From the NCBI GenBank assembly GCA_965247285.1, contig CBDFHD010000002.1, forward strand, positions 548,632 through 612,631: a stretch of 64,000 nucleotides of DNA, read 5' to 3'. This document shows, in pieces, positions 9,366 through 48,530 of this stretch; positions within the stretch are counted from its first letter, which is position 1, and each line of letters begins with the position of its first letter. The translations under genes and the position numbers were made by a program. Source of the DNA: Candidatus Poribacteria bacterium. GTDB lineage: Bacteria; Poribacteria; WGA-4E; WGA-3G. Under the pieces are notes generated by a model. That model saw only the letters and a list, made by a program, of their open reading frames with translations, did no database searches and was not told where the DNA came from.

Positions 9366-10148
9366 CTATCGCGCAAGATTTGACTTCAGTTTTCCCCATG
9401 TTGTCGTCAACTTGTCCTGAGATTTGACTGCCAGTACCCCTTCGATGCCTTTGTTCATTAATTCCTGAATCTCTTGCTCAGAGCGTGCGATGTTGGAGAT
9501 TCGGACTTCGTCCATCTGTCCTTGTAGAAATGGTCCGGCACCGCGTCCGAGCCACAAGACATCGTTGTTGGGGACGATATTGCCGCCAATTTTGCCTTCG
9601 CCGTCTATAACACCGTTGATATAAATCTTGCCTTCACCTGACTTCCCGTCGTAAGTACCGGCAACGTGCATCCACTTTTTCAGGGGCATTTCTGTTTTAC
9701 CGTGAACGACTGCAGCCCCCCATGCTTGCTTATCCGTAGTCAACCGGACGAGCACCTTCTTGTTATCTCGAGGTCCCACTTTGTAGCTTAACTCTTTCGT
9801 GGCACCTGTCCCGCCAGCGGTTGACCATGCCTCAAGGTAGAGCCACATTTCGACGGTGAGACCCTCAACCAGATCTAAGCTGTCGCTGTCAGGGATTTCT
9901 ACAAAATCCCTCGGACCATTTCCTTCAAAGACAAGCCCGCCACCGGGATTTCCCTCTCCCCGCTTCGGACCCATGAGTTCACCATCGTTTCCGTTACCAG
10001 AGAGGTCCTTGACGGCTTTCCCCGCTCCTGACTCAAAGGTGTAAAGAAGGACGGTGTGTTCATCCTGTGCAAAACTGGGTAGACTTCCGACGGATATTAA
10101 CAAAAAAACTAACATTAACCAACACAAGATATTTATAGCGTTCTGCAT
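9366..10148 (-). CDS. secreted LamG-like jellyroll (Laminin_G_3 / concanavalin A-like) protein
   Basis: Signal peptide; LLYTFESGAGKAVKDLSGNGNDGEL...GLVFEGNG..DFVEIPDS..L is the Laminin_G_3 signature; C-terminus ends ...LAVKSQDKLTTTWGKLKSNLAR. Confidence 0.8.
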   Translation of the reverse strand: MQNAINILCWLMLVFLLISVGSLPSFAQDEHTVLLYTFESGAGKAVKDLSGNGNDGELMGPKRGEGNPGGGLVFEGNGPRDFVEIPDSDSLDLVEGLTVEMWLYLEAWSTAGGTGATKELSYKVGPRDNKKVLVRLTTDKQAWGAAVVHGKTEMPLKKWMHVAGTYDGKSGEGKIYINGVIDGEGKIGGNIVPNNDVLWLGRGAGPFLQGQMDEVRISNIARSEQEIQELMNKGIEGVLAVKSQDKLTTTWGKLKSNLAR

Positions 10149-10450
10149 GATAAAATTTTTCCTCCTTAAGTGTCATTGACATTTTAGCATAGATCGATCC
10201 GACCCACAATCCAAAAATGGGCATACCGTTTTTTCTGAACAAATTTGATGCCGATTTGCCTAATCTAACAAGGGGAGATGGACCAAAAATTTCCAGATGA
10301 AATAAAAAGATATTATCGTAGTTCTTATACCGAATTAACAGAATTGTTTTTGCGTTATCTCTTTTCAGCGTTATACTGGAGTCATGAAAAACACAAAATA
10401 GCGAGTTTCGCCTCATTTTTTCATGGAGACGCTCAAAATTAGGATTTGAC

Positions 10451-12502
10451 ATGCAGTACACATCACAGCAAAATGATTGGTTGGTTCAGCCCTTTTGTCA
10501 ACCTGCTTCAGTAACAGAAACGGACAATCGGCTTATTCTCGGTAATGGTCTCATCCAGCGTACATTCGTCGCTTCACCTAATTTCGCAACGGTCAATTAT
10601 ACCAATCAAATTACGGGTAGTAGTTTTCTCCGTGGCATCAAACCAGAGGCGGTGCTTACGATTGACGGACACCAATTTGAGGTGGGTGGCTTGAAAGGAC
10701 AGCCCGACTACGCCTATCTTGATTCGGATTGGATTGTGGACTTGACGAGTGACCGGAACGCATTTCAATTTCGCGAATATCGAGTCGATGAAACTGAAAT
10801 CCCCTATCCGTGGGTACGCAGGCGTTCTGCTACATCATCAGTATATCCTCCAGAGGGTGTGACACTGACGATTGCGTTCTCACCGCCGCCATCTGTTGAT
10901 TCCCTTCAGGTTTGTGTGCATTATGAACTATACCAAGGCATTCCAGTCCTATCCAAGTGGATCACTATCCGCAATGAGGGGCAAAAACCGATTCAACTTG
11001 ATGCCTTAAGTTGTGAAATCCTTGCGGTCAACGAGCAGGAGAAGCATAGGCTACATGTCGAGAGCAATTATGCCTTCAGTGGAGTGGAAACGACGCAATG
11101 GGGTCCAGATGCGGATTACAAGACGCAAGTCGATTATCACTATCAGATGCCACTGTTGATGACAAGTTGTTATCCACTCGGTCCGGGAATACTTCTTCAA
11201 CCCGGAGAGACTTTCAAGAGTTTTCGCACCTTTGAGATTCTGCATGATAGTGATGCGCGTGAGCGAAAAGGACTCGCACGCCGCAAGATGTATCGCACGG
11301 TCGCGCCACAGGTCACGGAGAATCCAATTCTAATGCACGTTCGGAGTGCTGAGCCGGACCCAGTTCGTTTAGCGATTGATCAATGTGCCGAAGTCGGATT
11401 TGAAATGGTGATTATGACCTTTGGGAGTGGATTCAATATCGAGAGCGAAGACACGGAATACATCGCTACAATGAAGGAATTGACCGATTATGCACACGGG
11501 AAAGGTATTCAACTCGGTGGTTATACGCTGATGTGTGCTTCGCGGAATGTGGGTGAAGACTTCAACTGTATTGACCCAGACACCGGGCAACCCGGAAGTA
11601 AGTTTGGGCAGAGTGCTTGTCTTGCGAGCAGATGGGCAGACGGCTACTTCCAGCGAGTGCTGAATTTCATGGATGCAACCGGAATGGATGTCATAGAGAC
11701 GGATGGTCCTTATCATGGTGACGTCTGTGCGGCAACGACGCACGAATACCATAACGGCTTGGCGGATTCGCAGTTGCGTCAGTGGGAAGCATGCGTTTCT
11801 TTTTACCACGAATGCCGAGCACGCGGTATCTATATCAATTCGCCAGATCGGTATTACCTCAACGGTTCAAACAAATGCGGTATGGGCTATCGCGAAACGA
11901 ATTTCAGCTTGCCCCGCGAGCGGCAAATTCTGATTGCCCGACAGAATATCTACGATGGGACATTTGAAAAGACACCAAGTATGGGCTGGATGTTCGTCCC
12001 GTTGGTAGAGTACCACGGCGGCGGAGAAGCCGCAACGTTTGAGCCGCTTTGCGAACACCTTGATGACTACGAATCACATCTTGCACAAAACTTTGGCAGT
12101 GGTGTGATTGCGTGCTATCGCGGTCCCCGGCTTTTTGATACTGAAGAGACGAAAGCGGTCGTTAAGAAATGGGTTGACTTCTACAAAAAGTATCGCCCAA
12201 TATTGGATTCTGACCTGATTCACGTGCGCCGCCCAGATGGCCGTTCCATTGATTGTGTGCTCCACGCCAACACGCAAATCAGTCCCTGTGGATTAGCAAT
12301 GCTCTATAATCCTACGCGTAGGGTGCAACAGATGACTTTGAAATTACCGCTCTATTATACTGGATTGTCTGAAATTGCCAAAATTCGTGAAGAAGAAGGA
12401 GAACCCAAACGGCACACAATTGACCGGGATTACAACGTTGAGATTCCAATTAAGATGGAAGCAAAGAGCGTTAGCTATCTCGTTATTGACCCTGAAATTT
12501 GA
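10451..12502 (+). CDS. hypothetical protein, possibly a TIM-barrel carbohydrate-active enzyme (no confident family)
   Basis: 683-aa ORF with good coding character and no recognisable catalytic motif. Divergently transcribed from the upstream LamG gene. Confidence 0.3.
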   Translation: MQYTSQQNDWLVQPFCQPASVTETDNRLILGNGLIQRTFVASPNFATVNYTNQITGSSFLRGIKPEAVLTIDGHQFEVGGLKGQPDYAYLDSDWIVDLTSDRNAFQFREYRVDETEIPYPWVRRRSATSSVYPPEGVTLTIAFSPPPSVDSLQVCVHYELYQGIPVLSKWITIRNEGQKPIQLDALSCEILAVNEQEKHRLHVESNYAFSGVETTQWGPDADYKTQVDYHYQMPLLMTSCYPLGPGILLQPGETFKSFRTFEILHDSDARERKGLARRKMYRTVAPQVTENPILMHVRSAEPDPVRLAIDQCAEVGFEMVIMTFGSGFNIESEDTEYIATMKELTDYAHGKGIQLGGYTLMCASRNVGEDFNCIDPDTGQPGSKFGQSACLASRWADGYFQRVLNFMDATGMDVIETDGPYHGDVCAATTHEYHNGLADSQLRQWEACVSFYHECRARGIYINSPDRYYLNGSNKCGMGYRETNFSLPRERQILIARQNIYDGTFEKTPSMGWMFVPLVEYHGGGEAATFEPLCEHLDDYESHLAQNFGSGVIACYRGPRLFDTEETKAVVKKWVDFYKKYRPILDSDLIHVRRPDGRSIDCVLHANTQISPCGLAMLYNPTRRVQQMTLKLPLYYTGLSEIAKIREEEGEPKRHTIDRDYNVEIPIKMEAKSVSYLVIDPEI

Positions 12503-12580
12503 GTCCTCCCTAATTTTCGATACCAGTAGTCCGTGGTGAAAAACAGCGTAATTGGTGATAATTAAACCGTACGTTCACAA

Positions 12581-13369
12581 ATGGAGGTAAAAATGAGAGG
12601 AATCCAATTAGCGAAAGCAATTTTGGTATACGCAACGTTGATCTGCATCAGTTTAATGATTCCAGATCTCAGTTCTGCCAAACTCGATCCGGAAGCACTT
12701 TTGGGAATATGGTTCTTTGATGAAGGTAAAGGCGGTACGGCAAAAGATTCTTCCAAAAATGGCAATGACGGAGAGATTGTTGATCTCCAATGGGCAGATG
12801 GCAAGTTCGACAAAGCCCTAAAGTTTGAGGGTGGAGGTCATGTTGCTGTCGGCGATTTTTCTGACTATAAAGATGAAGTGTCGATCGTTGCTTTGATTCA
12901 AACGCCTGCAGCCCCCGCATGGTCTGACATCATCGTAGGTCCCTGCGGCGACGTTATCTTGACATTGCAGAACCACAAATTAAATTTCGCTGGACAGTGT
13001 GGACAACCGATTCCGCATAACACGTGGTCTGAAACCTTGTTGAACGATGATAAATGGCATCAGATTGCGGGGGTTTATGACGGTAAAACAGTGGAGGTCT
13101 ATGTCGATGGTGAGTTAGAAGCATCTAATGCTGCCGCAGGTCCGTTTATAGCCGGAGCTAAGTATATCGGCTCCAGAGACGACAAGCAGGAGGCTTTCAC
13201 TGGTCTCATTGATGAGATCGCATTTTTCAATGTTGCACTCTCAGAAAATGATGTGAAAGCGATTGCCGACACTGGATTATCTATCGCACTCGGTTTTGCA
13301 GCGGCTTCTCCTCAAGCGAAACTGACCACGGCTTGGGCAAAATTGAAAAGCGGAATGGTAACCCACTAA
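12581..13369 (+). CDS. secreted LamG-like jellyroll protein
   Basis: Signal peptide; LLGIWFFDEGKGGTAKDSSKNGNDGEIVDLQWADGKFDKALKFEGGGHVAV; C-terminus ...AKLTTAWAKLKSGMVTH. Confidence 0.8.
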   Translation: MEVKMRGIQLAKAILVYATLICISLMIPDLSSAKLDPEALLGIWFFDEGKGGTAKDSSKNGNDGEIVDLQWADGKFDKALKFEGGGHVAVGDFSDYKDEVSIVALIQTPAAPAWSDIIVGPCGDVILTLQNHKLNFAGQCGQPIPHNTWSETLLNDDKWHQIAGVYDGKTVEVYVDGELEASNAAAGPFIAGAKYIGSRDDKQEAFTGLIDEIAFFNVALSENDVKAIADTGLSIALGFAAASPQAKLTTAWAKLKSGMVTH

Positions 13370-13560: not shown

Positions 13561-13749
13561 GTTTTAGACGCGAATGATACGAGTGTTGGTCCCACCTATC
13601 AATTCTAAATTAGCCTGATTCAGAGCCTACAGAAAAACCTGCGTCGCGAAAAAGACTCTGTCTTTTCTGAACAAATTCATTACTTATTTGCCTAACTTAA
13701 CAGAAAGGTGTATATTCAAAAAATTATCAACTGTTCGCGAGGAAGACGT

Positions 13750-15900
13750 ATGAAACGAAAACATGTTATTATAACCCTTTTCCTGTGTGCACTGGTGTTT
13801 TCATTGGCAGTCGTCCTAAATACTTGGACGCAAGAAGGACTTTCAAAAGAGGAGAAACGGTTCGACCTTGACCGGGATGGTGAACTCAGCGACGCTGAAA
13901 CCACTCTCATGATTCGGGTGATGCGACTTGAAACCCAGAGAGGTACTCAATTCAGCGAGAGCGAGATCCGTCAAATGCAAAGTGGAGAGCGAGATAGATC
14001 TCGCGGAAGAGGTGGGTTCGGTAGAAGGCGAGGTTCTAGGGGACCTTCAGGGCCACGCTTGAATCCGGAGCAGATCGCATTTAAGGATGGGGCAGCGACA
14101 ATCCCCGACCGAGAGACCTTCGAGAAACTGTCGTATCAGGGTTTAGAGGTGCGTATTGACACTCAACTTACCGGAATCGAATTTGTAAAGTTCCAGATTG
14201 AGAATACACATACACAAAACCCACAACTTTATTTTATGAATACGGAAACACATCGGTCGCACGGGAGTTTCATGAATGCTGCTGGTTTGGGACGAGGTCA
14301 AGGACAGATGCGGGGTGTGCTGAGTTACCGCCCACTTTTCGTGGCACCGAACGGTGAACCCGGGGTCTATACCTTTGAGTTTAATCCAAACGATGCATTC
14401 CCGTTTGAAGAGATCAAACTCGCACACGATCTGCTCGTCGCGAAAATGCTGTCGCTGAAGAATCGACTCGGTTATTGTCCGTTGTGGGGAGCGATCGACA
14501 TTTATAATCGCGAAAAGATATACTATGACGCGGCGGAATTTCCCGTATATTTTGAGGACGATCTCTATGCCAACATCGGTTACCTTCCGCTGAATCAAGC
14601 GGCATCATTCGGTCGGCTTCGTGTCTTGGAGGCAGATGAACGTCCCACGGTTCAGGACATCGTTATCTGTAAAACTCTACCTAACGAGATGCCACGAGTT
14701 GCCGGCGTTATCACAGGTGCTCGGCAAACGCCGCTTTCCCATGTCAACCTCCGTGCTATTCAAGACAAAGTCCCTAACGCTTTCATTACTAAGGCGTGGG
14801 AAAACGACGCGATTGCACCGCTTATTGGGAAATACGTCTACTATGGTGTAAACGCCGATGGTTTTGAAATTAGGGAAGCGACACTAAAGGAAGTGGAGAC
14901 CCATTTTGCTGATTTACGTCCGTCAAAAACCCAGAGACCCGAACGTGATCTCTCAGTTACGAAGGTTCTGCGGCTTGACAACATAGGGTTTGCTGACTCG
15001 TCACGTTTTGGTGTGAAAACGGCTAATCTGGCGACGCTCCGCACATTCGGATTCCCTGAAGGTACTGTGCCGAACGGGTTTGGGATACCATTTTATTTTT
15101 ATGATGAATTTATGAAGCACAACGGCTTCTATGAGAGGATTGAGAGTTTGCTCAGAGATCCGGTATTTCAGCGTGAACAGGACACAAAGGAAGCAGAACT
15201 GAAAAAGTTTCGGGTGGAAATCAAGAAGGGTGAAATGCCGGCATGGATGATGGACGCGCTTTCCGATTTACAGAGCGAATATCCTGAAGGAACACCTCTC
15301 CGGTGCCGCTCCAGCACGAACAACGAGGACCTGCCCGGTTTCAGTGGTGCGGGTTTATACGACTCCTTCACGCACCACTCAGACGAGGGGCACTTATCCA
15401 AGTCAATTAAGCAGGTGTTTGCGAGCCTTTGGAATTACCGAGCGTTTGAGGCACGTGATTTTTATCGTATTGACCATATCGCTACTGCTATGGGTGTACT
15501 TGTGCATCCCAATTTTGAAAGCGAATTGGCGAACGGGGTAGCTGTAAGCGATGATGTTGTGTATCAGACGACAGGAAATTATTATCTCAACACCCAAGTT
15601 GGCGAGGACCTCGTGACCAACCCTGAAGAACAATCTGTTCCGGAAGAGATCCTCTTGGATTGGTGGGATAGCAATAACTACCGAGTTGTGACGAGTTCTA
15701 ATCGCACATCCGACAACAAACGGATTCTAACGAGAGAATACTTACGCCAACTCAGTTTCTATCTCGGCACGGTACACAACAAATTCAGTCAGCTCTACAG
15801 GCCCATTTCGCCGACGAAAGTGTTCGCTATGGAGGTTGAATTCAAGATTACAAGCGACGGAAAGCTTCTAATCAAACAGGCGAGACCGTGGGGACAGTGA
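13750..15900 (+). CDS. membrane-anchored PEP/pyruvate-binding-domain (PPDK_N, ATP-grasp-like) protein
   Basis: N-terminal hydrophobic anchor (HVIITLFLCALVFSLAVVLN), EF-hand/dockerin-like loop DLDRDGELSDAE, RGG-rich segment RSRGRGGFGRRRGSRGPSGP, then PPDK_N-like region (IVICKTLPNEMPRVAGVITGARQTPLSHVNLRA...). Start placed at ATG 13750, downstream of the ORF-track start. Confidence 0.5.
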   Translation: MKRKHVIITLFLCALVFSLAVVLNTWTQEGLSKEEKRFDLDRDGELSDAETTLMIRVMRLETQRGTQFSESEIRQMQSGERDRSRGRGGFGRRRGSRGPSGPRLNPEQIAFKDGAATIPDRETFEKLSYQGLEVRIDTQLTGIEFVKFQIENTHTQNPQLYFMNTETHRSHGSFMNAAGLGRGQGQMRGVLSYRPLFVAPNGEPGVYTFEFNPNDAFPFEEIKLAHDLLVAKMLSLKNRLGYCPLWGAIDIYNREKIYYDAAEFPVYFEDDLYANIGYLPLNQAASFGRLRVLEADERPTVQDIVICKTLPNEMPRVAGVITGARQTPLSHVNLRAIQDKVPNAFITKAWENDAIAPLIGKYVYYGVNADGFEIREATLKEVETHFADLRPSKTQRPERDLSVTKVLRLDNIGFADSSRFGVKTANLATLRTFGFPEGTVPNGFGIPFYFYDEFMKHNGFYERIESLLRDPVFQREQDTKEAELKKFRVEIKKGEMPAWMMDALSDLQSEYPEGTPLRCRSSTNNEDLPGFSGAGLYDSFTHHSDEGHLSKSIKQVFASLWNYRAFEARDFYRIDHIATAMGVLVHPNFESELANGVAVSDDVVYQTTGNYYLNTQVGEDLVTNPEEQSVPEEILLDWWDSNNYRVVTSSNRTSDNKRILTREYLRQLSFYLGTVHNKFSQLYRPISPTKVFAMEVEFKITSDGKLLIKQARPWGQ

Positions 15901-15911
15901 GTTTTCAATTT

Positions 15912-16095: not shown

Positions 16096-16845
16096 TCAAT
16101 TGGCTTTGAGTTTACCCCATGTCACCGCGAGCTTATCTGCCGCATCTACGGCGAGGATTGTGTTGAAGCCGGAATTCATAAATTCCTGGATTTCCTTTTG
16201 AGACTTCACCTTGTTGGAAATCCAGAGTTCGTCCATACCACCAATGAAATGAGATGAGCTAGAAGTCCGTCGATATCCAATATCAAGACTGGGTTCTCCT
16301 GTGACGTCAATGACCCCGCCCCCGGCGATTGGACCCCCGTCGTCTTCTTCACCATTGATATAGATAATCGCCTCTTTGCCATCCCATGTTGCGGCGACGT
16401 GACTCCATTCGCCTTCAGCAATCGTAGTTTGTCCGAGAAAATCTTTGACATGATACGTAGTCCAGACGAGTTTCTTTGAACCGTGGAATCCAAATTTCCA
16501 GCCGGCTCCGCCGTCCATCTCTACAATATTTTGCCAATTGTTAATGCCATCAGGGTTTACCCATGCGCCCACACTCATCGGGTCGGTGAGTTCTTTCAAA
16601 GGCGCAGCGTTTTCGATTGTAATAAACGTTCCGCCATCAAATTTAAATGCTTTGTCAAATTCGCCATCAATCCAAGATGCCTTTCCTTCAGCAGTACCAT
16701 CGTTTCCATGGTCTGAGAGGTCGGTGAGCGCGTCTCCTTTTCCCTCGTCAAATGTGGCGAGGAACACAATATCTTTCGGTAGCTCCGCGTATACGCTCCC
16801 AATACAGATTGTTAAAAGTAGGAGTGAATAAATTAAAGTTCGCAT
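16096..16845 (-). CDS. secreted LamG-like jellyroll protein
   Basis: Start moved to internal ATG (16845), which has SD AAGGAG 8 nt upstream and a signal peptide MRTLIYSLLLLTICIGSVYA. Laminin_G_3 signature FLATFDEGKGDALTDLSDHGNDGTAEG. C-terminus ...DKLAVTWGKLKAN. Confidence 0.8.
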   Translation of the reverse strand: MRTLIYSLLLLTICIGSVYAELPKDIVFLATFDEGKGDALTDLSDHGNDGTAEGKASWIDGEFDKAFKFDGGTFITIENAAPLKELTDPMSVGAWVNPDGINNWQNIVEMDGGAGWKFGFHGSKKLVWTTYHVKDFLGQTTIAEGEWSHVAATWDGKEAIIYINGEEDDGGPIAGGGVIDVTGEPSLDIGYRRTSSSSHFIGGMDELWISNKVKSQKEIQEFMNSGFNTILAVDAADKLAVTWGKLKAN

Positions 16846-17068: not shown

Positions 17069-19309
17069 TTACGGGTTCCACCAATAGGTTATTTTTCCGA
17101 GAACCGACCAGTCAAGGGGGTCAACACCCCCGTCGCGGGTATCATAGGTCTGATTGAGAACGAGGTAGAAATCGCTGCCCGGACGATAGATGTAGTTGAC
17201 TAAAAAATTCGCAGAGATTATGTCTGTATCGGTACTCCATTGCGTAAACAACTTCGTGAAAAGCGTTGTAGAGAAGGAATAACCGACACGTCCGCCGAAA
17301 GCGTTCGCATCAAATTCTTCATCAGTCAGCGTAATGCGGTTAAATTCGATGAACGGTTCTATACTAAACCGTGCGCTCGGTCTGACAGTCGCCTCTATTG
17401 AGAAACCGCGTCTCGTGCCGCTATAGAACTCCCCAATTTCCACTTGCAGTCGCGCCGTAATCATCCTGCTACTGCTGGTTCGAATTGAGGTCCGAAACGA
17501 AGTAAAATTATAATCCTCGACCGGGATACTAATGTCTTGAATCAGAAACTCCTCGTTCAGATTTTCCGTTGTGTTCTTGAGTTGGAACCCAATGTCGTCA
17601 CCCGTTTCAAACGAAAATCGCGTATCAAAGGTTATCTCTTGGGTTTCCACCTCGTTGTCTTGTGTCAGAATGAGATCGATTTCGGGTCCGATCTGAATCT
17701 CGCGAATGCCAAATTTACCGGGCCACGGGGTGTAGCTGGCATCACCGCGAAAGCGACGGAGGTCTGCCCGTTGAACGAAACCGACTTCCGGATTAAAGTC
17801 CTCACCGATGTCCATGTATGAACCGTTGAGTCGAAACAGATTCGTTCGCCAATCACCCGTCAAGGAGAAGGCGTTGCTCTTTCCAAGGACATCGGTTTCA
17901 AAGGTGCGTGCCCATAACCCTTGGAGATTAATCTCTCGTGTCGGACGGTACGAAAAATCAAGTCCGGTCGTGCGGTTGTATGCATCGGCATCTTGCTTAT
18001 TGACAAGAATCGCGCCGACAGTCGATCCACTTAAGATGTCTCTGTTCACCCGCACCACTGAGTAATTTGTGCGGAGTTCGTTGAATATGTCTGCCTCGGA
18101 TGTCTCCGTCCCATCATCTTCAAATTTATCCGTCAACACATTCAGGATCCCGATACCGTAGGGCCCGATTTTCCCCGTCACTTTACCGCCGCCGAGAAGG
18201 GGAATTGCGCGCTCTTCTGCAAGCCCGATACGGCGGCTATAAAAGAGCAGTAAAGGTGGGGGTATACGGAAACTTGTGCGTGGAATCCCGACATCGAAAA
18301 TACTGGCACCTTCTAAAAAAAATGGACGCTGCTCCGGGAAAAAGAGACTGAAACGGGTGAGGTTCACCTGCTCTTGGTCTGCCTCGACTTGGGCGAAATC
18401 GGTATTAAAGGTCAGATCGGCAGTTAAATTCGGTGTTAAGCCGTACTTGAGGTCCAAGCCAGCTTCAAACACACCCTGAGTTTCTTCAGTTTCTGGCACG
18501 GAACTCATACCCGGTAACACATAAGGTAGCAATTCCAGATGCCTTGATGGAGAAATGCCCTCTAACCCTTCAAGCGTGCCGAAGTAGGCAGTGCGATACT
18601 TCGCCAAGCCACCGTACGTTTTGGGAGCCTCATTCCATGCCGCAATTTCTTGTTTTCTTGCGATTTCGCGTCCGAAATTTACACCCCAGTTCATTACGTC
18701 GCTTTGTTCAAAGCGGAGTTGGCTGAATGGAATTGCGATTTCCACTGTCCAATGGTCTTCGTTAATTCTACAGCGGCACTCCCAAACGATATCCCAGCTG
18801 TGGTTAAGGCTACCACCGCTGTTAGATACTGCCGTGTCTTCTATCCCGCCTACCGGTGTGAAGCGAAAGAAAACGGCATTGCGTCGGTCATTGTAAGTAT
18901 CTAATAGCAGAAACCCGTAGTCGTTGGAACGCAAACCTTCGGAGTCCCGACGCATGTCGTTAGCGACAATCTTGTCCATCTCTGAATCGAAAAAAATAAA
19001 TCCGAAGTACAGTTTTTTGTCATCGTAAAGAATACGTACTTCGGACTGTTCTGTCGCCGGTTCGCCTTGATCGGGTTGGATTTGGTATAATTGGCGGATC
19101 GGTTCTACATTTTGCCAAACAGATTCGTCAAACACCCCATCGACTTTGATTTCCTCAGAGGTGCGGTGTGCTGACATGCGTGGTAACTCCCGTTCGGTCT
19201 GTGCATCGACACTGATAGAAACACATAGCATACACATCCACAGTAGCATTAAAACATTCGCCTTTCGCCAACGTTGTCGAAATTGAAAATCAATAGTGAT
19301 GTATGACAT
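17069..19309 (-). CDS. CBM9-like carbohydrate-binding domain plus DUF5916-family protein (secreted)
   Basis: N-terminal hydrophobic signal; EIKVDGVFDESVWQNVEPI...YDDKKLYFGF is CBM9-like; large beta-rich C-terminal region. SD GGAGG upstream of ATG 19309. Confidence 0.6.
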   Translation of the reverse strand: MSYITIDFQFRQRWRKANVLMLLWMCMLCVSISVDAQTERELPRMSAHRTSEEIKVDGVFDESVWQNVEPIRQLYQIQPDQGEPATEQSEVRILYDDKKLYFGFIFFDSEMDKIVANDMRRDSEGLRSNDYGFLLLDTYNDRRNAVFFRFTPVGGIEDTAVSNSGGSLNHSWDIVWECRCRINEDHWTVEIAIPFSQLRFEQSDVMNWGVNFGREIARKQEIAAWNEAPKTYGGLAKYRTAYFGTLEGLEGISPSRHLELLPYVLPGMSSVPETEETQGVFEAGLDLKYGLTPNLTADLTFNTDFAQVEADQEQVNLTRFSLFFPEQRPFFLEGASIFDVGIPRTSFRIPPPLLLFYSRRIGLAEERAIPLLGGGKVTGKIGPYGIGILNVLTDKFEDDGTETSEADIFNELRTNYSVVRVNRDILSGSTVGAILVNKQDADAYNRTTGLDFSYRPTREINLQGLWARTFETDVLGKSNAFSLTGDWRTNLFRLNGSYMDIGEDFNPEVGFVQRADLRRFRGDASYTPWPGKFGIREIQIGPEIDLILTQDNEVETQEITFDTRFSFETGDDIGFQLKNTTENLNEEFLIQDISIPVEDYNFTSFRTSIRTSSSRMITARLQVEIGEFYSGTRRGFSIEATVRPSARFSIEPFIEFNRITLTDEEFDANAFGGRVGYSFSTTLFTKLFTQWSTDTDIISANFLVNYIYRPGSDFYLVLNQTYDTRDGGVDPLDWSVLGKITYWWNP

Positions 19310-27015: not shown

Positions 27016-27157
27016 ATGCCTAAAATAATTTCTCAACATTTCTAACAATCTTGGTACGTAGTGCCTAAAACTGAATGGGTGTAACGCCCATACATTTACT
27101 TACCGCAGCGGGAAAACGAAGTGCATTGTCTGTTCCCTTTGCGGATTGGAAAGAACA

Positions 27158-27817
27158 ATGCTTACACATGCAGCTGAGGATTACCTCAAGTCGATCTACA
27201 AATTGCAAGAGAAGGTCGGTAAAGTTTCGACTGGCATTTTGGCGGAATTCCTCAATGTGAAGCCTGCGTCTGCCACTGGGATGATTAAAAAACTAAAAAC
27301 GATGAAACTGGTGAAACACGAGCGCTATCACGGTGTTACGCTGACGGCTACCGGGAAAGCAATCGCACTCGAAATTATCCGACACCATCGTTTGTTGGAA
27401 CTTTATCTATTCAAGGCACTCGGTGTTCCGTGGGATGGTGTTCACGAAGAAGCCGAGAAATTGGAGCATGTCATTTCAGAAGACGTGGAGGCACGGATGG
27501 ACGAATTTCTCGGATACCCGACTGCCGACCCGCACGGTGCACCGATACCCGATAAAAATGGGGTCGTAACACAGACAGCGTACGTTCCGATGACAGACTT
27601 GTGTAGTGGACAATCCTGCATCGTTGCTGAAGTGAGTGACACCGATTCGGCGATGCTTCGGCATTTAGGAAGTTTCAATCTCTACCCGGGCACAGCATTC
27701 CGAGTGATTGCGGTTGCTCCGTTTGAAGGTCCCTATACTATTGACGTCGCAGGACAGCAGGTCGTTATTGGACGCGAGGTTGCGAAACATATTTTTGTCG
27801 AGGATGTACAGGAATAG
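27158..27817 (+). CDS. DtxR/MntR-family metal-dependent transcriptional regulator with C-terminal FeoA/SH3-like domain
   Basis: HTH region AEDYLKSIYKLQEKVGKVSTGILAEFLNVKPASATGMIKKL, metal-binding/dimerisation region (HHRLLELYL), C-terminal FeoA-like GQSCIVAEVSD. Confidence 0.85.
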   Translation: MLTHAAEDYLKSIYKLQEKVGKVSTGILAEFLNVKPASATGMIKKLKTMKLVKHERYHGVTLTATGKAIALEIIRHHRLLELYLFKALGVPWDGVHEEAEKLEHVISEDVEARMDEFLGYPTADPHGAPIPDKNGVVTQTAYVPMTDLCSGQSCIVAEVSDTDSAMLRHLGSFNLYPGTAFRVIAVAPFEGPYTIDVAGQQVVIGREVAKHIFVEDVQE

Positions 27818-29155: not shown

Positions 29156-29158
29156 ATT

Positions 29159-30587: not shown

Positions 30588-30675
30588 AGTTCGTAATGAA
30601 ATGGAGAGCGGGTTTCAGAACGGAGCGTCAAAGTTCAAACCCACATTGTTTAACCGCAAGGAATAATTAAATTAC
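30588..30675 (+). repeat. intergenic leader-family element, copy 3, ending directly at the ATG of the ABC ATPase
   Basis: TCGTAATGAAATGGAGAGCGG...TTAACCGCAAGGAATAATTAAATTAC-ATG. Sits within a 557-bp gap that splits the metal-transporter operon. Confidence 0.6.
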
Positions 30676-31416
30676 ATGCAAGCCTCGGAAACGAAAGCCA
30701 TTGAAGTAACGGATCTGACAGTTGCCTATCAAGATCAACCTGTTTTGTGGGATATCGATCTGGATGTGCCACCAAGCGTGCTTTTGGCAATCGTTGGTCC
30801 CAATGGCGCAGGCAAAACTACATTGATTAAGGCGATTTTAGGGTTAGTACGCCCCGCGGCAGGCAACGTCTTGATTTACGGCAAACCTTATGAAGCACAA
30901 CGCCGGATTGTTGGTTATGTCCCGCAACGGGGGAGCGTTGACTGGGATTTTCCAACAAACGTGCTGGATGTCGTCATGATGGGACGTTACGGCGCACTCG
31001 GATGGATGAGACGACCCGGGAAGCAGGAACGGGAACTCGCCATGCATGCGTTGGAGAAGGTTGGTATGGAGGCGTATACCAACCGACAAATTAGTCAACT
31101 CTCCGGCGGACAGCAACAACGTGTTTTCCTCGCTCGTGCCCTTGTTCAAGATGCTACGATATATTTGATGGATGAGCCTTTTCAAGGTGTTGATGCTACC
31201 ACGGAACGCGCGATTGTTACACTCCTTCAGGAATTCCGAGAAAAAGGGAAAACGGTTGTCGTGGTACATCACGATTTACAAACGGTAACGGACTATTTCG
31301 ATTGGGTGATGCTTTTGAACATTCGCCGGATTGCGAGTGGACCTGTTGGTGAAACGTTCACACCTGAAAATTTGCGTACAACTTACGGTGGTCGTGTCGC
31401 GTTTATGACAAAGTAG
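30676..31416 (+). CDS. metal ABC transporter ATP-binding protein (ZnuC/MntB/TroB-like)
   Basis: Walker [10 protein letters not shown], signature [12 protein letters not shown], Walker B IYLMDEP. Confidence 0.85.
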
Positions 31417-31478
31417 TAGGCATACTCCGTATGCCGTAACCAAAGCAGTAGGTGCGCTCTATGTGCCGTTCATAGATC

Positions 31479-32417
31479 ATGGCAAATTTGAGTATTCTTA
31501 TCCATCTTGATTATACGCTCATGATTGTTGCCATCGGTGCTGCCTTGCTGGGTGCTGTAAGCGGATCACTCGGTACCTATGCTGTTTTGCGACGGCAGAG
31601 TCTCCTCGGCGATGCCATCTCACATGCCGCCTTGCCCGGCGTTGCAATCGCATTTCTGCTGACGGGAAGCAAAACGCCTCTGATTCTGGTCCTCGGTGCG
31701 GCACTTGCGGGCTGGCTCGGCACGCTGCTCATTTTAAGTATCGTGAGGCTGACCCGTATCAAATACGATAGCGCGCTTGGAATCGTACTCTCTACCTTTT
31801 TCGGATTTGGTTTAGTGCTGCATACACTAATTCAACGCACGGGCAATGCAAATCAAGCCGGGTTAGATACGTTTCTCTTCGGACAAGCCGCTACGGTCCT
31901 GGAGAGCGATGTCTTGACGATAGGTATACTCGGTGGTGTCGCAATCATCATCATGTTCGTCTTTTGGAAAGAGTTGAAGTTGCTGGTTTTCGATGAGGGT
32001 TTCGCTGCATCGCTTGGGTTCCCAATCCGTGTGCTTGATATTCTGTTGACGAGTCTCCTTGTTATAGCAATCGTTCTCGGTTTGCAAGCTGTCGGTGCCG
32101 TCCTGATGAGTGCGATGTTGGTCGCGCCAGCAGTCGCCGCACGGCAGTGGACAAATAAGCTTAGTCTGATGATGTTTCTCGCCGCATGCTTTGGAGCACT
32201 GGCTGGGGTGAGCGGAACTATTATTAGTAGTAGTGCTTCACGCATCCCGACCGGTCCAACGATTGTGCTGTGTGCAACGGTTGTGGTGGGGCTCTCGATC
32301 GCTTTTGCCCCGAATCGCGGGCTTTTATGGGACTGGCTTCGGCACCAACGAAACAAACAGGGTCTAAAGGTGGCAATGGATCGGTTGTTGAAGCATCCGC
32401 AGCGTGGGAGCGAATAG
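31479..32417 (+). CDS. metal ABC transporter permease (TroC/ZnuB/MntC-like)
   Basis: Multi-pass membrane protein of the ABC-3 permease family. Confidence 0.8.
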   Translation: MANLSILIHLDYTLMIVAIGAALLGAVSGSLGTYAVLRRQSLLGDAISHAALPGVAIAFLLTGSKTPLILVLGAALAGWLGTLLILSIVRLTRIKYDSALGIVLSTFFGFGLVLHTLIQRTGNANQAGLDTFLFGQAATVLESDVLTIGILGGVAIIIMFVFWKELKLLVFDEGFAASLGFPIRVLDILLTSLLVIAIVLGLQAVGAVLMSAMLVAPAVAARQWTNKLSLMMFLAACFGALAGVSGTIISSSASRIPTGPTIVLCATVVVGLSIAFAPNRGLLWDWLRHQRNKQGLKVAMDRLLKHPQRGSE

Positions 32418-32423
32418 GAAAAA

Positions 32424-33533
32424 GTGATACAAGACCATCTTGATATCCAACTCATTGCGATTGTCACAGCGGTGGCGTGTGCTTTGCCGGGTGTGTTCTT
32501 AGTTCTACGGCGGATGACTTTGATGAGCGACGCGATTAGCCACGCGATTCTTCCCGGCATCGTGCTCGCCTTTTTTCTTACAGAGAGTCTGTCATCGCCG
32601 CTCCTAATTCTTGCCGCTGCGGGAACCGGTGTGCTCACTGTTGTTTTCGTTGAATTGCTGCAGCGGACGAAACTGGTGAAAGAGGATGCCGCGATTGGGT
32701 TGACATTCCCTGCTCTTTTCAGCATCGGGGTGATCCTGATTTCCAAATTTGCAGGCAGCGTTCACTTGGATATGGATGCCGTCCTTCTCGGCGAACTTGC
32801 TTACGCCCATTTAAATCGACTGGAGGTCTTCGGATACAATCTCGGTCCCGTTTCTCTGTATGTAATGGGAACGATTCTTCTGCTGAACCTCGCCTTTATT
32901 CTACTATTTTACAAAGAATTGAAGTTAGCAACCTTTGACGCAAGTTTGGCTGCCGCGTTGGGGTTTGCGCCGACGCTTATCCACTACGGTCTGATGACAC
33001 TGGTATCCGTAACAACAGTTGGAGCATTTGACGCTGTTGGGTCGATATTAGTTGTTGCTCTCATCGCTGGACCACCTGCTACCGCTTATCTCATAACAAA
33101 CAGGCTTTCCGTGATGCTCACCCTGAGTGCGGTTATCGGGAGTGTGAATGCTGTGAGTGGTTATTGGGTCGCGTACCTCTTCGATGTCTCTATTGCGGGG
33201 TCGATTGCGACGATGACGCTCCTCGTGTTCGGACTGGTTTTTCTGGTTGTTCCGAGCCGCGGACTTATCGCTATCGCACGTAGGCGGACACGCCAAAAAT
33301 GGGAGTTTGCCCAAACGATGTTAGTGATTCACCTCTTTAATCACGAGGGACTTCCGGAAGCAGAGGCAGAATCAGAGATAGCACACCTTCATGAACATCT
33401 TCGCTGGGATCCGGAATTTGCGACCCATGTCGTAAAATACGCATTGAACAACCGATGTGTCTCTCAAGAGGAGACACTGTTAACGCTAACGGAACACGGA
33501 CGCGCGGTAGCACAGCAGGCACTTGTGCAATAG
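32424..33533 (+). CDS. metal ABC transporter permease (TroD-like) with an approximately 80-aa soluble C-terminal extension
   Basis: ABC-3 permease body plus C-terminal tail IHLFNHEGLPEAEAESEIAHLHEHLRWDPEFATHVVKYALNNRCVSQEETLLTLTEHGRAVAQQ (winged-helix / DtxR-C-like?). Confidence 0.75.
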   Translation: MIQDHLDIQLIAIVTAVACALPGVFLVLRRMTLMSDAISHAILPGIVLAFFLTESLSSPLLILAAAGTGVLTVVFVELLQRTKLVKEDAAIGLTFPALFSIGVILISKFAGSVHLDMDAVLLGELAYAHLNRLEVFGYNLGPVSLYVMGTILLLNLAFILLFYKELKLATFDASLAAALGFAPTLIHYGLMTLVSVTTVGAFDAVGSILVVALIAGPPATAYLITNRLSVMLTLSAVIGSVNAVSGYWVAYLFDVSIAGSIATMTLLVFGLVFLVVPSRGLIAIARRRTRQKWEFAQTMLVIHLFNHEGLPEAEAESEIAHLHEHLRWDPEFATHVVKYALNNRCVSQEETLLTLTEHGRAVAQQALVQ

Positions 33534-36842: not shown

Positions 36843-37673
36843 ATGAAAACCTTTATTTCAATTTGCACCACGCTGCTTTTCCTATTAATGGCGTGTCACG
36901 CTACGTTTGCTGATGTTGTTGAAGATCCTGTGCTCTATCTCGATGCCGCTGACAACCCTGCGCATCCGAAGGCATGGGAGAATCTTGGTACCGAAGGCGG
37001 TGAATTGCTTGTGGCAGACAAGCCAATGGAACTCGAAGAAGGCGAAATTAAAATTCCTGCCCTCGGTGTCAGCGAACCGAATGCGAAGTATTACACAACC
37101 AAGGAATCCCATTCAACTTTTGGCGGTCCGCCACCCAAAAATCCACCACTGTTTTTCGAGGACTGGACATTGGAATTCCTCTGTAGGCGCAACGGCGATT
37201 TTTTTCTTGAGGAGCATCACTTCGCCGGTTTCCAGAACAGTCCAAGAGAAGGCAAGCAGGGAGTTCGGCTGTGGATAGTCGGCGGTCAGAATTTGGACAT
37301 GTCCATCCATGCTGGTGGTTCTAAGCAAGGTGTTCAACCGCTTAACCTCAAACTTGAGGAAGGTGTTTGGACCTGGATAACGGTTGTCGGCACGAATGAT
37401 AAGTCAATTGTAGCGTATCAAGATGGTAAAGAAGTCAGCGAACAAGCCGGTTTTGAATTCGACAAGAGTTTACCAATAGACGACATCTCAATCGGTGCCA
37501 ATTCCTTCGATGAACGCCGTCGAACGTTTAATGGTTCGTTTGCGATTGTCCGCGCTTATGACAAAGCACTATCCGAAGCGGAGGTTAACCAAAACATCTC
37601 TGACACATTTGCTGTTGATCCGGCAGACAAACTTCCAACGGTTTGGGCAAAGGTAAAACGCGACTATCAATAG
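36843..37673 (+). CDS. secreted LamG-like jellyroll protein (divergent member)
   Basis: Signal peptide; concanavalin-like pattern; C-terminus ...DPADKLPTVWAKVKRDYQ carries the family C-terminal motif. Confidence 0.6.
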   Translation: MKTFISICTTLLFLLMACHATFADVVEDPVLYLDAADNPAHPKAWENLGTEGGELLVADKPMELEEGEIKIPALGVSEPNAKYYTTKESHSTFGGPPPKNPPLFFEDWTLEFLCRRNGDFFLEEHHFAGFQNSPREGKQGVRLWIVGGQNLDMSIHAGGSKQGVQPLNLKLEEGVWTWITVVGTNDKSIVAYQDGKEVSEQAGFEFDKSLPIDDISIGANSFDERRRTFNGSFAIVRAYDKALSEAEVNQNISDTFAVDPADKLPTVWAKVKRDYQ

Positions 37674-46362: not shown

Positions 46363-46401
46363 AAAGTAGGTTAGAGCATTGACATTTATCTCCATTTACC
46401 A

Positions 46402-47409: not shown

Positions 47410-47457
47410 TTTTAATTTATCGCTCCTCGGCTGCCCTCCATTTCATTACGGGCAGGT
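47410..47457 (-). repeat. short leader-family element (CTGCCC-GTAATGAAATGGA-GGGCAG hairpin plus AGGAGCGATAAATTAAAA) directly 5' of the Gfo/Idh/MocA ATG
   Basis: Stem covaries with 43895..43945 (CTGCTC/GAGCAG versus CTGCCC/GGGCAG). Confidence 0.6.
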
Positions 47458-47569
47458 TTTCGTCCTTCCTCTCCTGCTTTTTTAAAATTGAGCAGTTCAA
47501 AAACAACTGCATCCAAAACACTAAGCCTGAAACGAAGTGGAAGGGTTTTTGCTTGGGTGTTTCTTCAAC

Positions 47570-47630
47570 GCTATACAGAGGCACGTGAATGCCTAACCAA
47601 CGTTACTTAACCTCAAGGTAAATTAGAAAA
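47570..47630 (+). repeat. leader-family element copy (GGCACGTGAATG ... CTTAACCTCAAGGTAAATTAGAAAATT)
   Basis: Abuts or overlaps the stop of the minus-strand LamG gene. Confidence 0.5.
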
Positions 47631-48530
47631 TTATCTCCGTCTGGCTTTGATATGTCCCCATGTAACGCTCAGGTGGCTTGCAGAAGGACTGACATCAAGC
47701 CCTGTGGCTTCCATGTTGTTCTGGACTTCTGCTGCACTTAGAACGCGATCGTAAATTCGGAATTCGTCGATATATCCCTGAATTGTATCGCAATCGCATC
47801 CATCTGACCGATCCCCGATGCCGAGGAGGAGCCCTCCCTTTGGGATTTTACCGCCCTTCATGGCATACTTTTTTTCGAGTTTTCCATTCACATAGTAGTG
47901 AACCATGTTGCCATCGTAGGTGCCGGTGAGGTGCAGCCACTCTTCAAGTGGAATATCCTCCAGTACATTGTCTTGTGCTGCCACCGTTGATTGACCACCC
48001 GCTCTAATGAAGAAACCGTGCTGGTTATCGTCATCATCGTAATAGAGGCTTACGACTGCGCTGTTCGTTGGCATATCGTCAAGTGAGATAATCCGGTTCC
48101 AACTGTCATCCAAGGCGTTAATATAGACCCAACATTCCAGGGTGATTTCCTCCCAATCACGGTCGATTTTGGGTGGGTTTGAATCTTCAACGAGAAAGCG
48201 GTCAACACTGCCATCAAAAAGAATGCACTCACCGACTTTACAATCGGAGGCGGGTGCGAGTTCGGGATCCCCGTGGACAGCTGCCGCGAGTCCTGACAAG
48301 AGATCTACCGCCTCAGTTTTAATTTTTACTGTGTCTTTGTCGAAGGTCCAATAGGCGACTAAGCCATTTTCAACCGCTCCGATGATTGCCTCGGTGGGTT
48401 GCGCGTTCCATGCAAGGAACGCGATAAGGAGAAGGGCGAATGCGCGTTTGGCATTCGCAAAGACTGTAAAGAACCGTGAATTTTCCACAAAATATCTGCT
48501 CTGAAAACGGGTGCCGTTCTGTAGACGCAT
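47631..48530 (-). CDS. secreted LamG-like jellyroll protein
   Basis: Laminin_G_3-like pattern; C-terminus ...SASHLSVTWGHIKARRR carries the family motif. Confidence 0.7.
   Translation of the reverse strand: MRLQNGTRFQSRYFVENSRFFTVFANAKRAFALLLIAFLAWNAQPTEAIIGAVENGLVAYWTFDKDTVKIKTEAVDLLSGLAAAVHGDPELAPASDCKVGECILFDGSVDRFLVEDSNPPKIDRDWEEITLECWVYINALDDSWNRIISLDDMPTNSAVVSLYYDDDDNQHGFFIRAGGQSTVAAQDNVLEDIPLEEWLHLTGTYDGNMVHYYVNGKLEKKYAMKGGKIPKGGLLLGIGDRSDGCDCDTIQGYIDEFRIYDRVLSAAEVQNNMEATGLDVSPSASHLSVTWGHIKARRR

Follow-up and report, generated by a model that had tools for sequence, protein, structure and literature searches.

A peptide of about 17 conserved residues closes many mutually unrelated Sec-exported proteins of Candidatus Poribacteria, and by analogy with known systems it may represent a new, Poribacteria-specific C-terminal sorting or anchoring signal, a reading to which we give an even chance of being correct. 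A preliminary description of the window (the whole stretch of 64,000 nucleotides analysed here, from Candidatus Poribacteria) had treated this tail as belonging to five LamG paralogues; these five do carry it, but it proved to be Poribacteria-wide and to occur on many unrelated families. The idea of an autonomous C-terminal tag of the recognition or sorting type thus stands, whereas its role in sorting, anchoring or processing is one that we only infer.

Tagged proteins of the window

The five ORFs described earlier are all present in the window (Table 1), and the Laminin_G_3 core assigned to them was recovered by Pfam in each case (5/5, E 3e-12 to 1e-25). Signal peptides had been claimed for all five: four are plainly of SPase-I type, but carrier 5 is less plain on reading its sequence, as its hydrophobic signal core (residues 30-41) follows a 29-residue extension, which renders its start codon uncertain. 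In carrier 3 the ATG start yields a signal peptide, while a longer GTG ORF extends to 16980; a DUF5916/CBM9 gene (17069-19309) lies directly upstream on the same strand.

Carriers 2-5 share only 25-39% pairwise identity with carrier 1, and the Laminin_G_3 profile stops about 30 residues short of the C-terminus in all five. Nevertheless, three of the nine invariant columns in the alignment of these paralogues (L247, W251 and K255) fall within the 10-residue core of the tail. The five tails run to KLxTTWGKLK or a close variant, and beyond the final K they have 5, 6, 2, 4 and 4 residues more (carriers 1-5), in agreement with the distance of 2-6 residues given before, whereas the regular expression offered for the motif was approximate, protein 2 having FAA instead of FAV, and protein 5 LDV together with HL instead of KL. 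The variant of carrier 2 is retained by the orthologue fragments P0129, P0134 and P0135, and that of carrier 5 by P0144 and P0146; carrier 4 clusters with tagged proteins of L026 and L030, and the orthologues of carrier 1 (77-100% identity) bear the name Candidatus Poribacteria. The pattern W[GAS][KRH][ILVM]K has six matches in the six-frame translation of the whole window, five of which are the five C-termini and the sixth sits in a 36-codon junk ORF.

Table 1. Tagged LamG proteins of the window and their C-terminal tags
Feature	Positions	Strand	Basis and remarks
Carrier 1, secreted LamG protein, 260 aa (signal peptide, Laminin_G_3 core, tag)	9366..10148	-	ORF; Laminin_G_3 E=1.6e-24, residues 80-228 (Pfam)
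Tag of carrier 1, LAVKSQDKLTTTWGKLKSNLAR	9369..9434	-	translation
Carrier 2, secreted LamG protein, 262 aa	12581..13369	+	ORF; Laminin_G_3 E=7.9e-22
Tag of carrier 2, FAAASPQAKLTTAWAKLKSGMVTH	13295..13366	+	translation; A replaces T, A replaces G
Carrier 3, secreted LamG protein, 249 aa from ATG	16096..16845	-	ORF; Laminin_G_3 E=9.6e-26
Tag of carrier 3, LAVDAADKLAVTWGKLKAN	16099..16155	-	translation
Carrier 4, secreted LamG protein, 276 aa	36843..37673	+	ORF; Laminin_G_3 E=3.3e-12
Tag of carrier 4, FAVDPADKLPTVWAKVKRDYQ	37608..37670	+	translation
Carrier 5, LamG protein, 299 aa as listed, start codon uncertain	47631..48530	-	ORF; Laminin_G_3 E=1.1e-25
Tag of carrier 5, LDVSPSASHLSVTWGHIKARRR	47634..47699	-	translation; most diverged variant

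A modular and strictly C-terminal peptide

The tag is modular and strictly C-terminal. Between its consensus, [LTF]-[AP]-V-[EDS]-[PA]-x-[GDN]-K-L-[ATS]-T-T-W-G-x-[LI]-K, and the stop lie 1-8 residues that are unconstrained and often basic. GTDB species genomes were scanned with a degenerate DNA pattern encoding KLxTTWGx[LIM]K, which gave at least 120 loci; among the matches listed, 127 of 133 lie 0-8 codons ahead of a stop (mode 3). Positions outside the search pattern are conserved as well, namely V (122/127), P or A (115/127) and, at another position that the pattern did not impose, E, D or S (100/127). In the same listed matches the Lys, Trp and Thr-Thr are invariant, whereas net charge varies, some tags ending in GEIKQGQ, and the last residue is Lys in 14 of 127 and F, Y or W in 21 of 127. 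Independently of the DNA pattern, a 30-position profile of the tail, searched against 1.84e9 representative proteins at E <= 1e-3, matched 185 clusters, and in nearly all of them the match ends 0-5 residues from the C-terminus. Contrary to the eventuality that the motif might be absent from homologues or not confined to C-termini, homologues throughout the phylum carry it, nearly always at the C-terminus.

Among 104 orthologues of carrier 1, tag and folded core are equally conserved (0.30-0.38 and 0.31 bit, respectively), in contrast to the final five residues, whose variability (1.43 bit) is some four times as high. Every synonymous codon is in use for the invariant tag residues; since synonymous sites thus vary freely, selection acts on the peptide and not on the DNA, and recent gene conversion does not account for the similarity of the tails.

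An AlphaFold2 model of carrier 1, built from a 38-sequence alignment, adopts a ConA-like fold (mean pLDDT 84), in which the core reaches about 90 but residues 241-260 only about 50, the latter unpacked against the sandwich. The possibility raised beforehand that the tail is merely the last LamG beta-strand does not agree with this model, where it lies outside the jelly-roll, nor with its presence at the end of non-LamG families; as modelled, the tag is not part of the preceding fold.

Carrier families and taxonomic range

Among the matches listed, carriers comprise 67 LamG proteins and at least 20 families without mutual BLAST similarity. By Pfam these include CBM9, 3-keto-disaccharide hydrolase (DUF1080), F5/8 type C and ankyrin proteins, as well as giants with a lamin-tail domain (LTD; 968 and >1391 aa), and PD40 proteins likewise end in the tag. 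Most carriers are single beta-sandwich modules of glycan-binding or lectin-like type, without a lipid or membrane anchor of their own; of those listed, 91% measure 200-320 aa, 103 of 107 complete ones possess an N-terminal hydrophobic signal, and only eight show even a loose resemblance to a lipobox. The four complete carriers devoid of a signal look like start-site artefacts.

Poribacteria are named in 107 of the 120 locus titles, and among the matches listed all genuine ones with a taxon name belong to this phylum, except for one sponge contig that is probably misbinned. Matches in Synechococcus, Bacillota and Psychrosphaera are due to chance, as none terminates a real ORF, and a Mycoplasmopsis match was rejected because the upstream V-[ED]-P motif is missing. 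Two tag-like variants in unassigned metagenome contigs (L132 and L187) count against a phylum-restricted tag. Nevertheless, we estimate from the sequences sampled that the tag is probably restricted to Poribacteria; both this exclusivity and the count per genome are estimates drawn from at least 120 loci rather than from whole genomes. Of the 753 non-seed ORFs of the loci a further 36, or roughly 5%, carry the tag, as do 5 of about 50 genes of the window.

Discussion

In accordance with the earlier statement that the tail fits no known sorting signal, sorting-domain models of Pfam and NCBIfam gave zero matches even at E <= 10. The tails have no match in Pfam, NCBIfam or PDB and the tag has no transmembrane segment, which excludes the signal classes of sortase, exosortase, rhombosortase and T9SS. 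The T9SS C-terminal domain of Bacteroidota (type A, TIGR04183; type B, TIGR04131) gave no HMM match at E <= 10. Still, this domain is lineage-restricted and present on many unrelated Sec-exported proteins, like the tag, and it often finishes in K-[LIV]-x-K-like residues near the stop, as the tag also does. It sends cargo to, or attaches it at, the cell surface, a function to which that of the tag is likened by analogy; however, it is a folded beta-sandwich of 70-100 residues, whereas the tag has about 20 residues and a low-confidence model. Poribacteria were reported to have T9SS-like C-terminal domains yet no T9SS structural genes, the secretion route being left open (Kamke et al. 2014, PMC3909097).

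The PEP-CTERM/exosortase, LPXTG/sortase, GlyGly-CTERM/rhombosortase and MYXO-CTERM systems similarly place a short C-terminal signature on many secreted paralogues of one lineage, and the V-E-P of the tag superficially resembles the P-E-P of PEP-CTERM; the end is often basic in these signals and in the tag alike. However, each such signal has three parts (a motif, a transmembrane helix and a basic cluster), while the tag is without a hydrophobic segment and matches none of their models. Dockerins, which bind cohesins in cellulosomes, are also modular C-terminal appendages on diverse secreted carbohydrate-related modules and could tie these to a common partner, but dockerins, which enzymes usually carry, are folded Ca-binding domains some 70 residues long, in contrast to a peptide of about 17 residues, mostly on binding modules, and we know of no cohesin-like receptor for the tag. 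As in the pairs PTS1-PEX5 and outer-membrane beta-signal-BamD, a short C-terminal peptide would serve as address, and TPR (lipo)proteins often adjoin carriers; PTS1 and the beta-signal, though, are recognised by the residues at the extreme end (SKL-COOH and a terminal aromatic, respectively), whereas the tag motif precedes 1-8 variable ones and few of the tags listed (21/127) finish in F, Y or W.

We favour, at even chances, a sorting or anchoring peptide, in which the carrier would first be exported by Sec and its flexible tail then read as a linear peptide close to a free end. Poribacteria alone would possess the putative recogniser, a dedicated component of the envelope that may route the cargo to the cell surface or fix it there. 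The tag could be either retained, implying non-covalent docking, or clipped past the invariant Lys, implying covalent attachment, and would thus be a counterpart of the T9SS C-terminal domain or of dockerin, although far shorter and without a transmembrane segment. The neighbourhoods of the tag-seeded loci revealed no receptor, sortase, protease, translocon or secretion gene next to carriers; what recurs beside them is other carriers together with ASPIC/FG-GAP, TPR, PhyH and GFO genes. The length of the tag also counts against the favoured reading, as its 17 conserved residues exceed what a protease site needs and suit a plain protein-protein docking epitope unrelated to sorting.

These neighbours suggest another, rather unlikely, function, an assembly tag by which small lectin-like modules would dock non-covalently onto periplasmic or surface TPR (lipo)proteins encoded nearby and/or onto the ASPIC/FG-GAP (CRTAC1-like) beta-propeller, yielding modular glycan-binding complexes. 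An ASPIC/UnbV gene occurs, as a raw count, in 17 of 120 tag-seeded loci, mostly on the strand of the carrier. In at least nine of these 17 it directly adjoins the carrier, and in most others only a TPR gene, occasionally one small ORF, intervenes; immediately upstream on the same strand ASPIC is the commonest non-carrier gene. Seven ASPIC paralogue groups, mutually 30-50% identical, adjoin carriers of at least six families, whereas PhyH, reported to outnumber every other Pfam family in Poribacteria (PMC3909097), is found in only 13 loci. Neighbouring TPR and ASPIC proteins have signal or lipoprotein sequences. Furthermore, TPR proteins are a class known for binding C-terminal peptides, such as PTS1 by the TPR domain of PEX5, EEVD by Hop, and C-terminal signals of outer-membrane proteins by BamD. 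However, ASPIC is absent from 103 of the 120 loci and from the surroundings of all five window carriers, ASPIC loci of other phyla are without the tag (2 tag-like ends in the 622 kb examined), and a single near-invariant tag argues for one receptor site and not for many diverged paralogous partners.

No less doubtful is a periplasmic transpeptidase or protease that would cut near W-G-x-[LI]-K, release the short variable end and link the cargo covalently to peptidoglycan, LPS or lipid, analogous to attachment by sortase, PorU or of Lpp type. The 1-8 residues past the Lys, free in length and sequence, resemble a leaving group, and the strictly C-terminal position, the invariant Lys, Trp and Thr-Thr and the want of any other anchor in the carriers would suit such a substrate. 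Against it, carrier neighbourhoods yielded no candidate enzyme, a membrane-retention segment as in sortase, exosortase and rhombosortase substrates is missing, and a conserved stretch of 17 residues far exceeds known cleavage motifs; direct Lpp-type chemistry on a terminal Lys is inapplicable, because so few of the listed tags (14/127) end in Lys.

Less probable again is an in-plane amphipathic anchor to membrane or LPS, a short surface-lying helix as in E. coli PBP5/6, where the extreme C-terminus is likewise all that anchors an otherwise soluble protein of the periplasm. AlphaFold2 predicts a helix at residues 243-257 with low confidence, and the sequence reads L, W and [LI] at i, i+4 and i+7, with Lys and Arg on either side, on carriers lacking another anchor. 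But the hydrophobic side chains number only three, Thr-Thr and Gly speak for strand or coil instead of helix, net charge varies, and generic membrane binding needs neither near-invariant polar residues nor the upstream V-[ED]-P-x-G; the PBP5 anchor, a longer helix, has a broad hydrophobic face and is poorly conserved in sequence, in contrast to the hydrophilic, nearly invariant tag. Finally, ordinary paralogue retention, by which the tail would be no more than the conserved end of a single LamG subfamily and play no part of its own, seems highly improbable even though the five window genes are paralogues within one Pfam family and LamG proteins make up about half of the sampled carriers, since the tail closes at least 20 BLAST-unrelated families with differing Pfam domains, lies outside the modelled LamG fold, and is the best conserved block of paralogues otherwise so diverged.

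Read as a sorting or anchoring peptide, the tag would suggest that Poribacteria, which are symbionts of sponges, possess a system for sorting or anchoring proteins that has yet to be described.

The laminin G-like proteins of the window

The five LamG-jellyroll ORFs on which the preliminary description was built are all present (Table), and each matches the Pfam family Laminin_G_3 (E 3e-12 to 1e-25), with bit scores of 47-91 against the PF13385 cut-off of 27.6. Identity of the other four to carrier 1 is only 25-39%, and three of the nine invariant columns in the alignment of all five fall within the last 14 residues, the Laminin_G_3 profile itself stopping about 30 residues short of the C-terminus. 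We refer to this C-terminal peptide of about 17 residues, KLxTTWGKLK-like and followed by a few residues and the stop, as the tag, and to any protein ending in it as a carrier. Six-frame translation of the window yielded six matches to W[GAS][KRH][ILVM]K, five of which are the carrier C-termini and the sixth part of a 36-codon junk ORF, so that chance can be excluded. Signal peptides had been assigned to all five proteins; they are obvious in four, whereas the hydrophobic core of carrier 5 lies behind a 29-residue extension, and we therefore regard its start codon as uncertain. The database contains 405 relatives of carrier 1; the top-ranking 120 are orthologues at 77-100% identity, and those of the 120 that bear a name are listed as 'Candidatus Poribacteria bacterium'. 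The remaining gene content of the window is compatible with Poribacteria, comprising a sulfatase, PhyH, several proteins of the GFO/IDH/MocA and xylose-isomerase-like TIM-barrel kinds, TPR proteins, DUF1080-type relatives, and a DUF5916/CBM9 protein.

Features of the window and of three further loci (L-handles denote 8-kb loci from the DNA-pattern scan; L132 and L187 are unassigned metagenome contigs)
Location	Strand	Feature	C-terminal end or internal stretch
1343-3325	+	B12-binding radical SAM protein with DUF4070
9366-10148	-	LamG protein, carrier 1	LAVKSQDKLTTTWGKLKSNLAR
12581-13369	+	LamG protein, carrier 2	FAAASPQAKLTTAWAKLKSGMVTH
13708-15900	+	730 aa; signal/TM start, EF-hand-like stretch, Arg/Gly-rich stretch, then PPDK_N	DLDRDGELSDAE (EF-hand-like stretch)
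16096-16845	-	LamG protein, carrier 3	LAVDAADKLAVTWGKLKAN
17069-19309	-	746-aa DUF5916 and CBM9-like protein with signal sequence
27146-33533		Metal-homeostasis cluster: DtxR-family regulator with FeoA domain, VIT1 transporter, ZnuA/ABC/ABC-3 (x2) Mn/Zn uptake
36843-37673	+	LamG protein, carrier 4	FAVDPADKLPTVWAKVKRDYQ
47631-48530	-	LamG protein, carrier 5	LDVSPSASHLSVTWGHIKARRR
48682-50076	-	464 aa; two beta/gamma-crystallin domains and a DUF1349/GH43_C2 ConA-like domain
52760-63809		Uma2 endonuclease, FRG-domain protein, TaqI_C specificity-domain fragment, DDE transposase, two ORFs (318 and 866 aa) without Pfam match
L002:1714-2679	-	Untagged PD40/TolB-like protein	...QIRQWGKIRAPQ
L132:4755-5778	-	CBM9-like protein, diverged tag variant	...VETAVEDDSWGRIKSGFSK
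L187:3301-4144	-	LamG protein, diverged tag variant	...FASDKIATTWSTIKSQ

Whether the tail might simply be the last strand of the LamG fold had been raised as a structural test, which was answered by an AlphaFold2 model of carrier 1 built on a 38-sequence alignment (a single-sequence model reached only pLDDT 35). The model is a ConA-like jelly-roll (mean pLDDT 84, core about 90) whose fold matches the clostridial neurotoxin HCN domain, AbnA domain 4, and the trans-sialidase lectin domain (E 1e-9 to 1e-12). Residues 241-260, in contrast, have a pLDDT near 50 and appear in the model as a helix apart from the core, so that the tail is placed outside the fold and is no LamG strand.

Several other genes of the window are worth recording. 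The crystallin-domain protein adjoining carrier 5 has neither an obvious signal peptide nor a tag. The 730-aa protein, whose PPDK_N is the AMP/ATP-binding domain of pyruvate phosphate dikinase, has an architecture that is odd for an exported protein. Furthermore, the radical SAM protein has a C-terminal extension of about 150 residues weakly resembling apolipoprotein repeats, and the genes at 52760-63809, with which the window closes, resemble a small islet of defence or mobile functions.

The tag on unrelated exported proteins

Described at first as a feature of five LamG paralogues, the tail is real on all five but far broader, being carried by many unrelated families. Searching 1.84 billion representative proteins with a 30-position tail profile yielded 185 clusters (E <= 1e-3), nearly all with a match ending 0-5 residues from the C-terminus; the sequence ahead of the match was of clearly different kinds. 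A word-indexed search with a padded tail profile gave short fragments only, among them the first hints of non-LamG carriers (database proteins P0130, P0131, P0133, and P0149). Likewise, a degenerate DNA pattern for K-L-x-T-T-W-G-x-[LIM]-K, run on one genome per GTDB species, found at least 120 loci, and 107 of the 120 listed titles name Poribacteria. The other listed loci are unnamed 'uncultured bacterium' bins, four chance hits, and one sponge 'Pseudomonadota' bin, whose contig is probably misbinned because its carriers cluster with a poribacterial family. Among the matches listed, every named member is either poribacterial, a deep-pelagic MAG (L091) among them, or a sponge assembly, for instance that of Geodia barretti; the tag appears restricted to one phylum.

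Once the tag is removed, the carriers fall into one LamG cluster of 67 and at least 20 clusters without mutual BLAST similarity. Pfam recognises among them CBM9, 3-keto-disaccharide hydrolase/DUF1080, F5/8 type C, an ankyrin carrier of 622 aa, and lamin-tail-domain giants of 968 aa (L027) and more than 1391 aa (L060); to these come a PD40 beta-propeller protein recognised from its sequence and several families without any Pfam match. An N-terminal hydrophobic signal is present in 103 of 107 complete carriers, and the other four look like start-site artefacts. Only eight carriers show a loose lipobox likeness, with the Cys inside the hydrophobic core and ahead of an AxA-type cleavage site. The carriers are Sec-exported, otherwise unanchored, and mostly lectin-like, and 91% of them measure 200-320 aa, the size of a single beta-sandwich module with the tag added.

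Relaxed versions of the tag occur on 36 additional ORFs among the 753 non-seed ORFs of the 8-kb loci, and the window holds five carriers per approximately 50 genes, so that carriers may be estimated at roughly 5% of ORFs, a figure biased by clustering because carriers so often adjoin carriers: another carrier is their commonest same-strand neighbour (33 of 150).

Three observations concern individual families. The two lamin-tail giants share a C-terminal module of about 100 residues (...SELNNAGF...YYYQIEDVSLDG...) directly ahead of the tag, which matches no Pfam or NCBIfam model. In the PD40/TolB-like family, three of nine sampled members are tagged, and the end of the untagged member at L002 may be a decayed tag. 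The diverged variants at L132 and L187, each beside an ASPIC homologue, may represent distant or ancestral tag forms outside the sampled Poribacteria.

Position and conservation

The tag is modular, strictly C-terminal, and under selection as a peptide. DNA-pattern matches lie 0-8 codons ahead of a stop in 127 of the 133 listed, most often three codons ahead. Its consensus, [LTF]-[AP]-V-[EDS]-[PA]-x-[GDN]-K-L-[ATS]-T-T-W-G-x-[LI]-K, is wider than the imposed search pattern, as residues outside that pattern are also conserved. In the orthologues of carrier 1 (104 full-length sequences), conservation of the tag equals that of the folded core (0.30-0.38 versus 0.31 bit per column), while variability rises about fourfold over the five residues behind the last Lys (1.43 bit). 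All synonymous codons are in use at the invariant K, L, T, T, G, and K, which places selection on the peptide and rules out a repeat, a recombination site, gene conversion, or any DNA or RNA element behind the tag.

Comparison with known C-terminal signals

That the tail matches no known sorting signal withstood direct comparison. Ten diverse tails and a 125-residue C-terminal piece hit no Pfam or NCBIfam model even at E <= 10, although NCBIfam release 20 includes models for PEP-CTERM, LPXTG, GlyGly-CTERM, MYXO-CTERM, and T9SS types A and B, and the tail profile found no match among PDB chains. Sortase-type signals combine a motif, a hydrophobic transmembrane helix, and a basic cluster, whereas the tag has no hydrophobic segment, and only 1-8 mostly polar or basic residues, with neither LPXTG nor PEP, stand behind its motif; PEP-CTERM/exosortase, LPXTG/sortase, GlyGly-CTERM, MYXO-CTERM, and with them all such tripartite signals, are therefore excluded. 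The T9SS C-terminal domain (TIGR04183, TIGR04131, Por_Secre_tail) is folded and 70-100 residues long, but only about 30 residues extend past the LamG profile and no beta-sandwich is modelled there; being far shorter, and at a pLDDT of about 50 not modelled as folded, the tag is no such domain. For single-cell genomes of Poribacteria, Kamke et al. 2014 (PMC3909097) reported that structural genes of Por secretion are absent; they noted C-terminal domains resembling those of T9SS despite the lack of T9SS genes, and left the pathway open.

Three further signals depend on the very end of the chain. The beta-signal of BAM substrates has an aromatic final residue closing an alternating hydrophobic terminal strand, PDZ-type ligands (Prc/Tsp, DegS, CtpA) have conserved residues whose spacing from the free carboxylate is fixed, and in Lpp-type peptidoglycan attachment the C-terminal Lys is the residue linked by L,D-transpeptidases. 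In the 127 tags, however, the last residue is usually R (44), Q (20), or K (14), with F, Y, and W together accounting for only 21; the invariant K is internal, and the spacer of 0-8 residues behind it is about fourfold more variable. Variable spacer and usual R/Q/K ending thus exclude all three, and the cargo, moreover, consists of soluble beta-sandwich modules, not barrels. Type I secretion substrates lack a signal peptide and are exported in one step, which the N-terminal signals of the carriers (103 of 107) exclude, and the same signals rule out a microcompartment or encapsulin targeting peptide. A ribosome-arrest peptide of the SecM/TnaC type does not agree with the variable motif-to-stop distance and the high number of carriers, nor does a radical-SAM Lys-Trp crosslink (streptide/WGK type) with the non-conserved residue behind W-G and full-length Sec-exported substrates. 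No paper found in a literature search mentions the motif or a poribacterial sorting signal.

Possible function of the tag

Near-invariance over 17 residues in hundreds of paralogues suggests that the tag is recognised by one specific reader. The strict need for a nearby free end, with a short variable spacer, resembles a threaded or clipped signal more than a general docking epitope, and the cargo, being made of binding modules, would be useful only if held somewhere. For these reasons we give an even chance to our preferred reading, in which the tag would act after Sec export as a sorting or anchoring signal that serves surface display or retention.

A rival reading draws on the gene neighbourhood. 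An ASPIC/UnbV and FG-GAP (CRTAC1-like) secreted protein forms cassettes with at least one tagged protein and often a TPR (lipo)protein, usually on one strand (loci L004, L019, L029, L039, L054, L056, L063, L064, L068, L080, L092, L105, L109, L111, L112, and L118), and seven ASPIC paralogue groups adjoin carriers of at least six different families. Tag-like ends are almost absent from 622 kb of metagenome ASPIC loci, which serve as a negative control only and not as an unbiased poribacterial sample, since almost all come from other phyla (41-52% identity). The tag could accordingly dock carriers onto neighbouring TPR or ASPIC proteins, but most carriers have no such neighbours, and we consider this unlikely. 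Similarly improbable, in our judgement, is that the tag is itself a transpeptidase or protease site: the free end would suit clipping, and no sortase-, protease- or secretin-like partner recurs around carriers in the 120 loci searched. In the window, carrier 3 directly follows the DUF5916 gene on its own strand, possibly within one operon; across the 120 other loci DUF5916 does not recur at all.

We hold an amphipathic anchor in the membrane or LPS to be rather improbable. Anchors of the PBP5 type are helices that span about 16-20 residues and expose a broad hydrophobic face. AlphaFold2 draws a low-confidence helix at 243-257; the only hydrophobics of the tag are L, W, and [LI], and its T-T-x-G disfavours a helix. 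Mere retention among paralogues, which the preliminary description set against a functional tag, is contradicted by the data, the tail closing at least 20 families without mutual BLAST similarity and lying outside the LamG fold, and deserves hardly any credence.

Returning to the sorting or anchoring signal, a bolder version can be put forward tentatively, namely that the tag is the cargo mark of an undiscovered, Poribacteria-specific envelope sorting or surface-display machine. The cargo of such a machine might number about a hundred or more proteins in each genome, both lectin-like and eukaryote-like. It would read a short hydrophilic peptide without a transmembrane segment, and no secretion or sortase-type system described so far uses a signal built in this way; it would also define the surface that these dominant symbionts show to the sponge host.

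Implications

The tag is genuine, reaches far beyond its first description, and seems to be new to the literature; it represents a novel kind of lineage-specific C-terminal tag. Among the uncultivated symbionts of sponges, Poribacteria rank with the most abundant and the most widespread, and the tag makes it testable by what route they export and display their many eukaryote-like and glycan-binding proteins. Being easily searchable and present on about 1 in 20 ORFs, it provides an in-silico catalogue of the probable surface and secreted proteome, yields diagnostic tryptic peptides for metaproteomics, and offers a handle on the missing machinery through phylogenetic profiling, peptide pull-downs, and complex prediction. 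If it is a sorting signal, it would represent a new architecture among C-terminal sorting signals, one that is short and hydrophilic and has no membrane-spanning segment.
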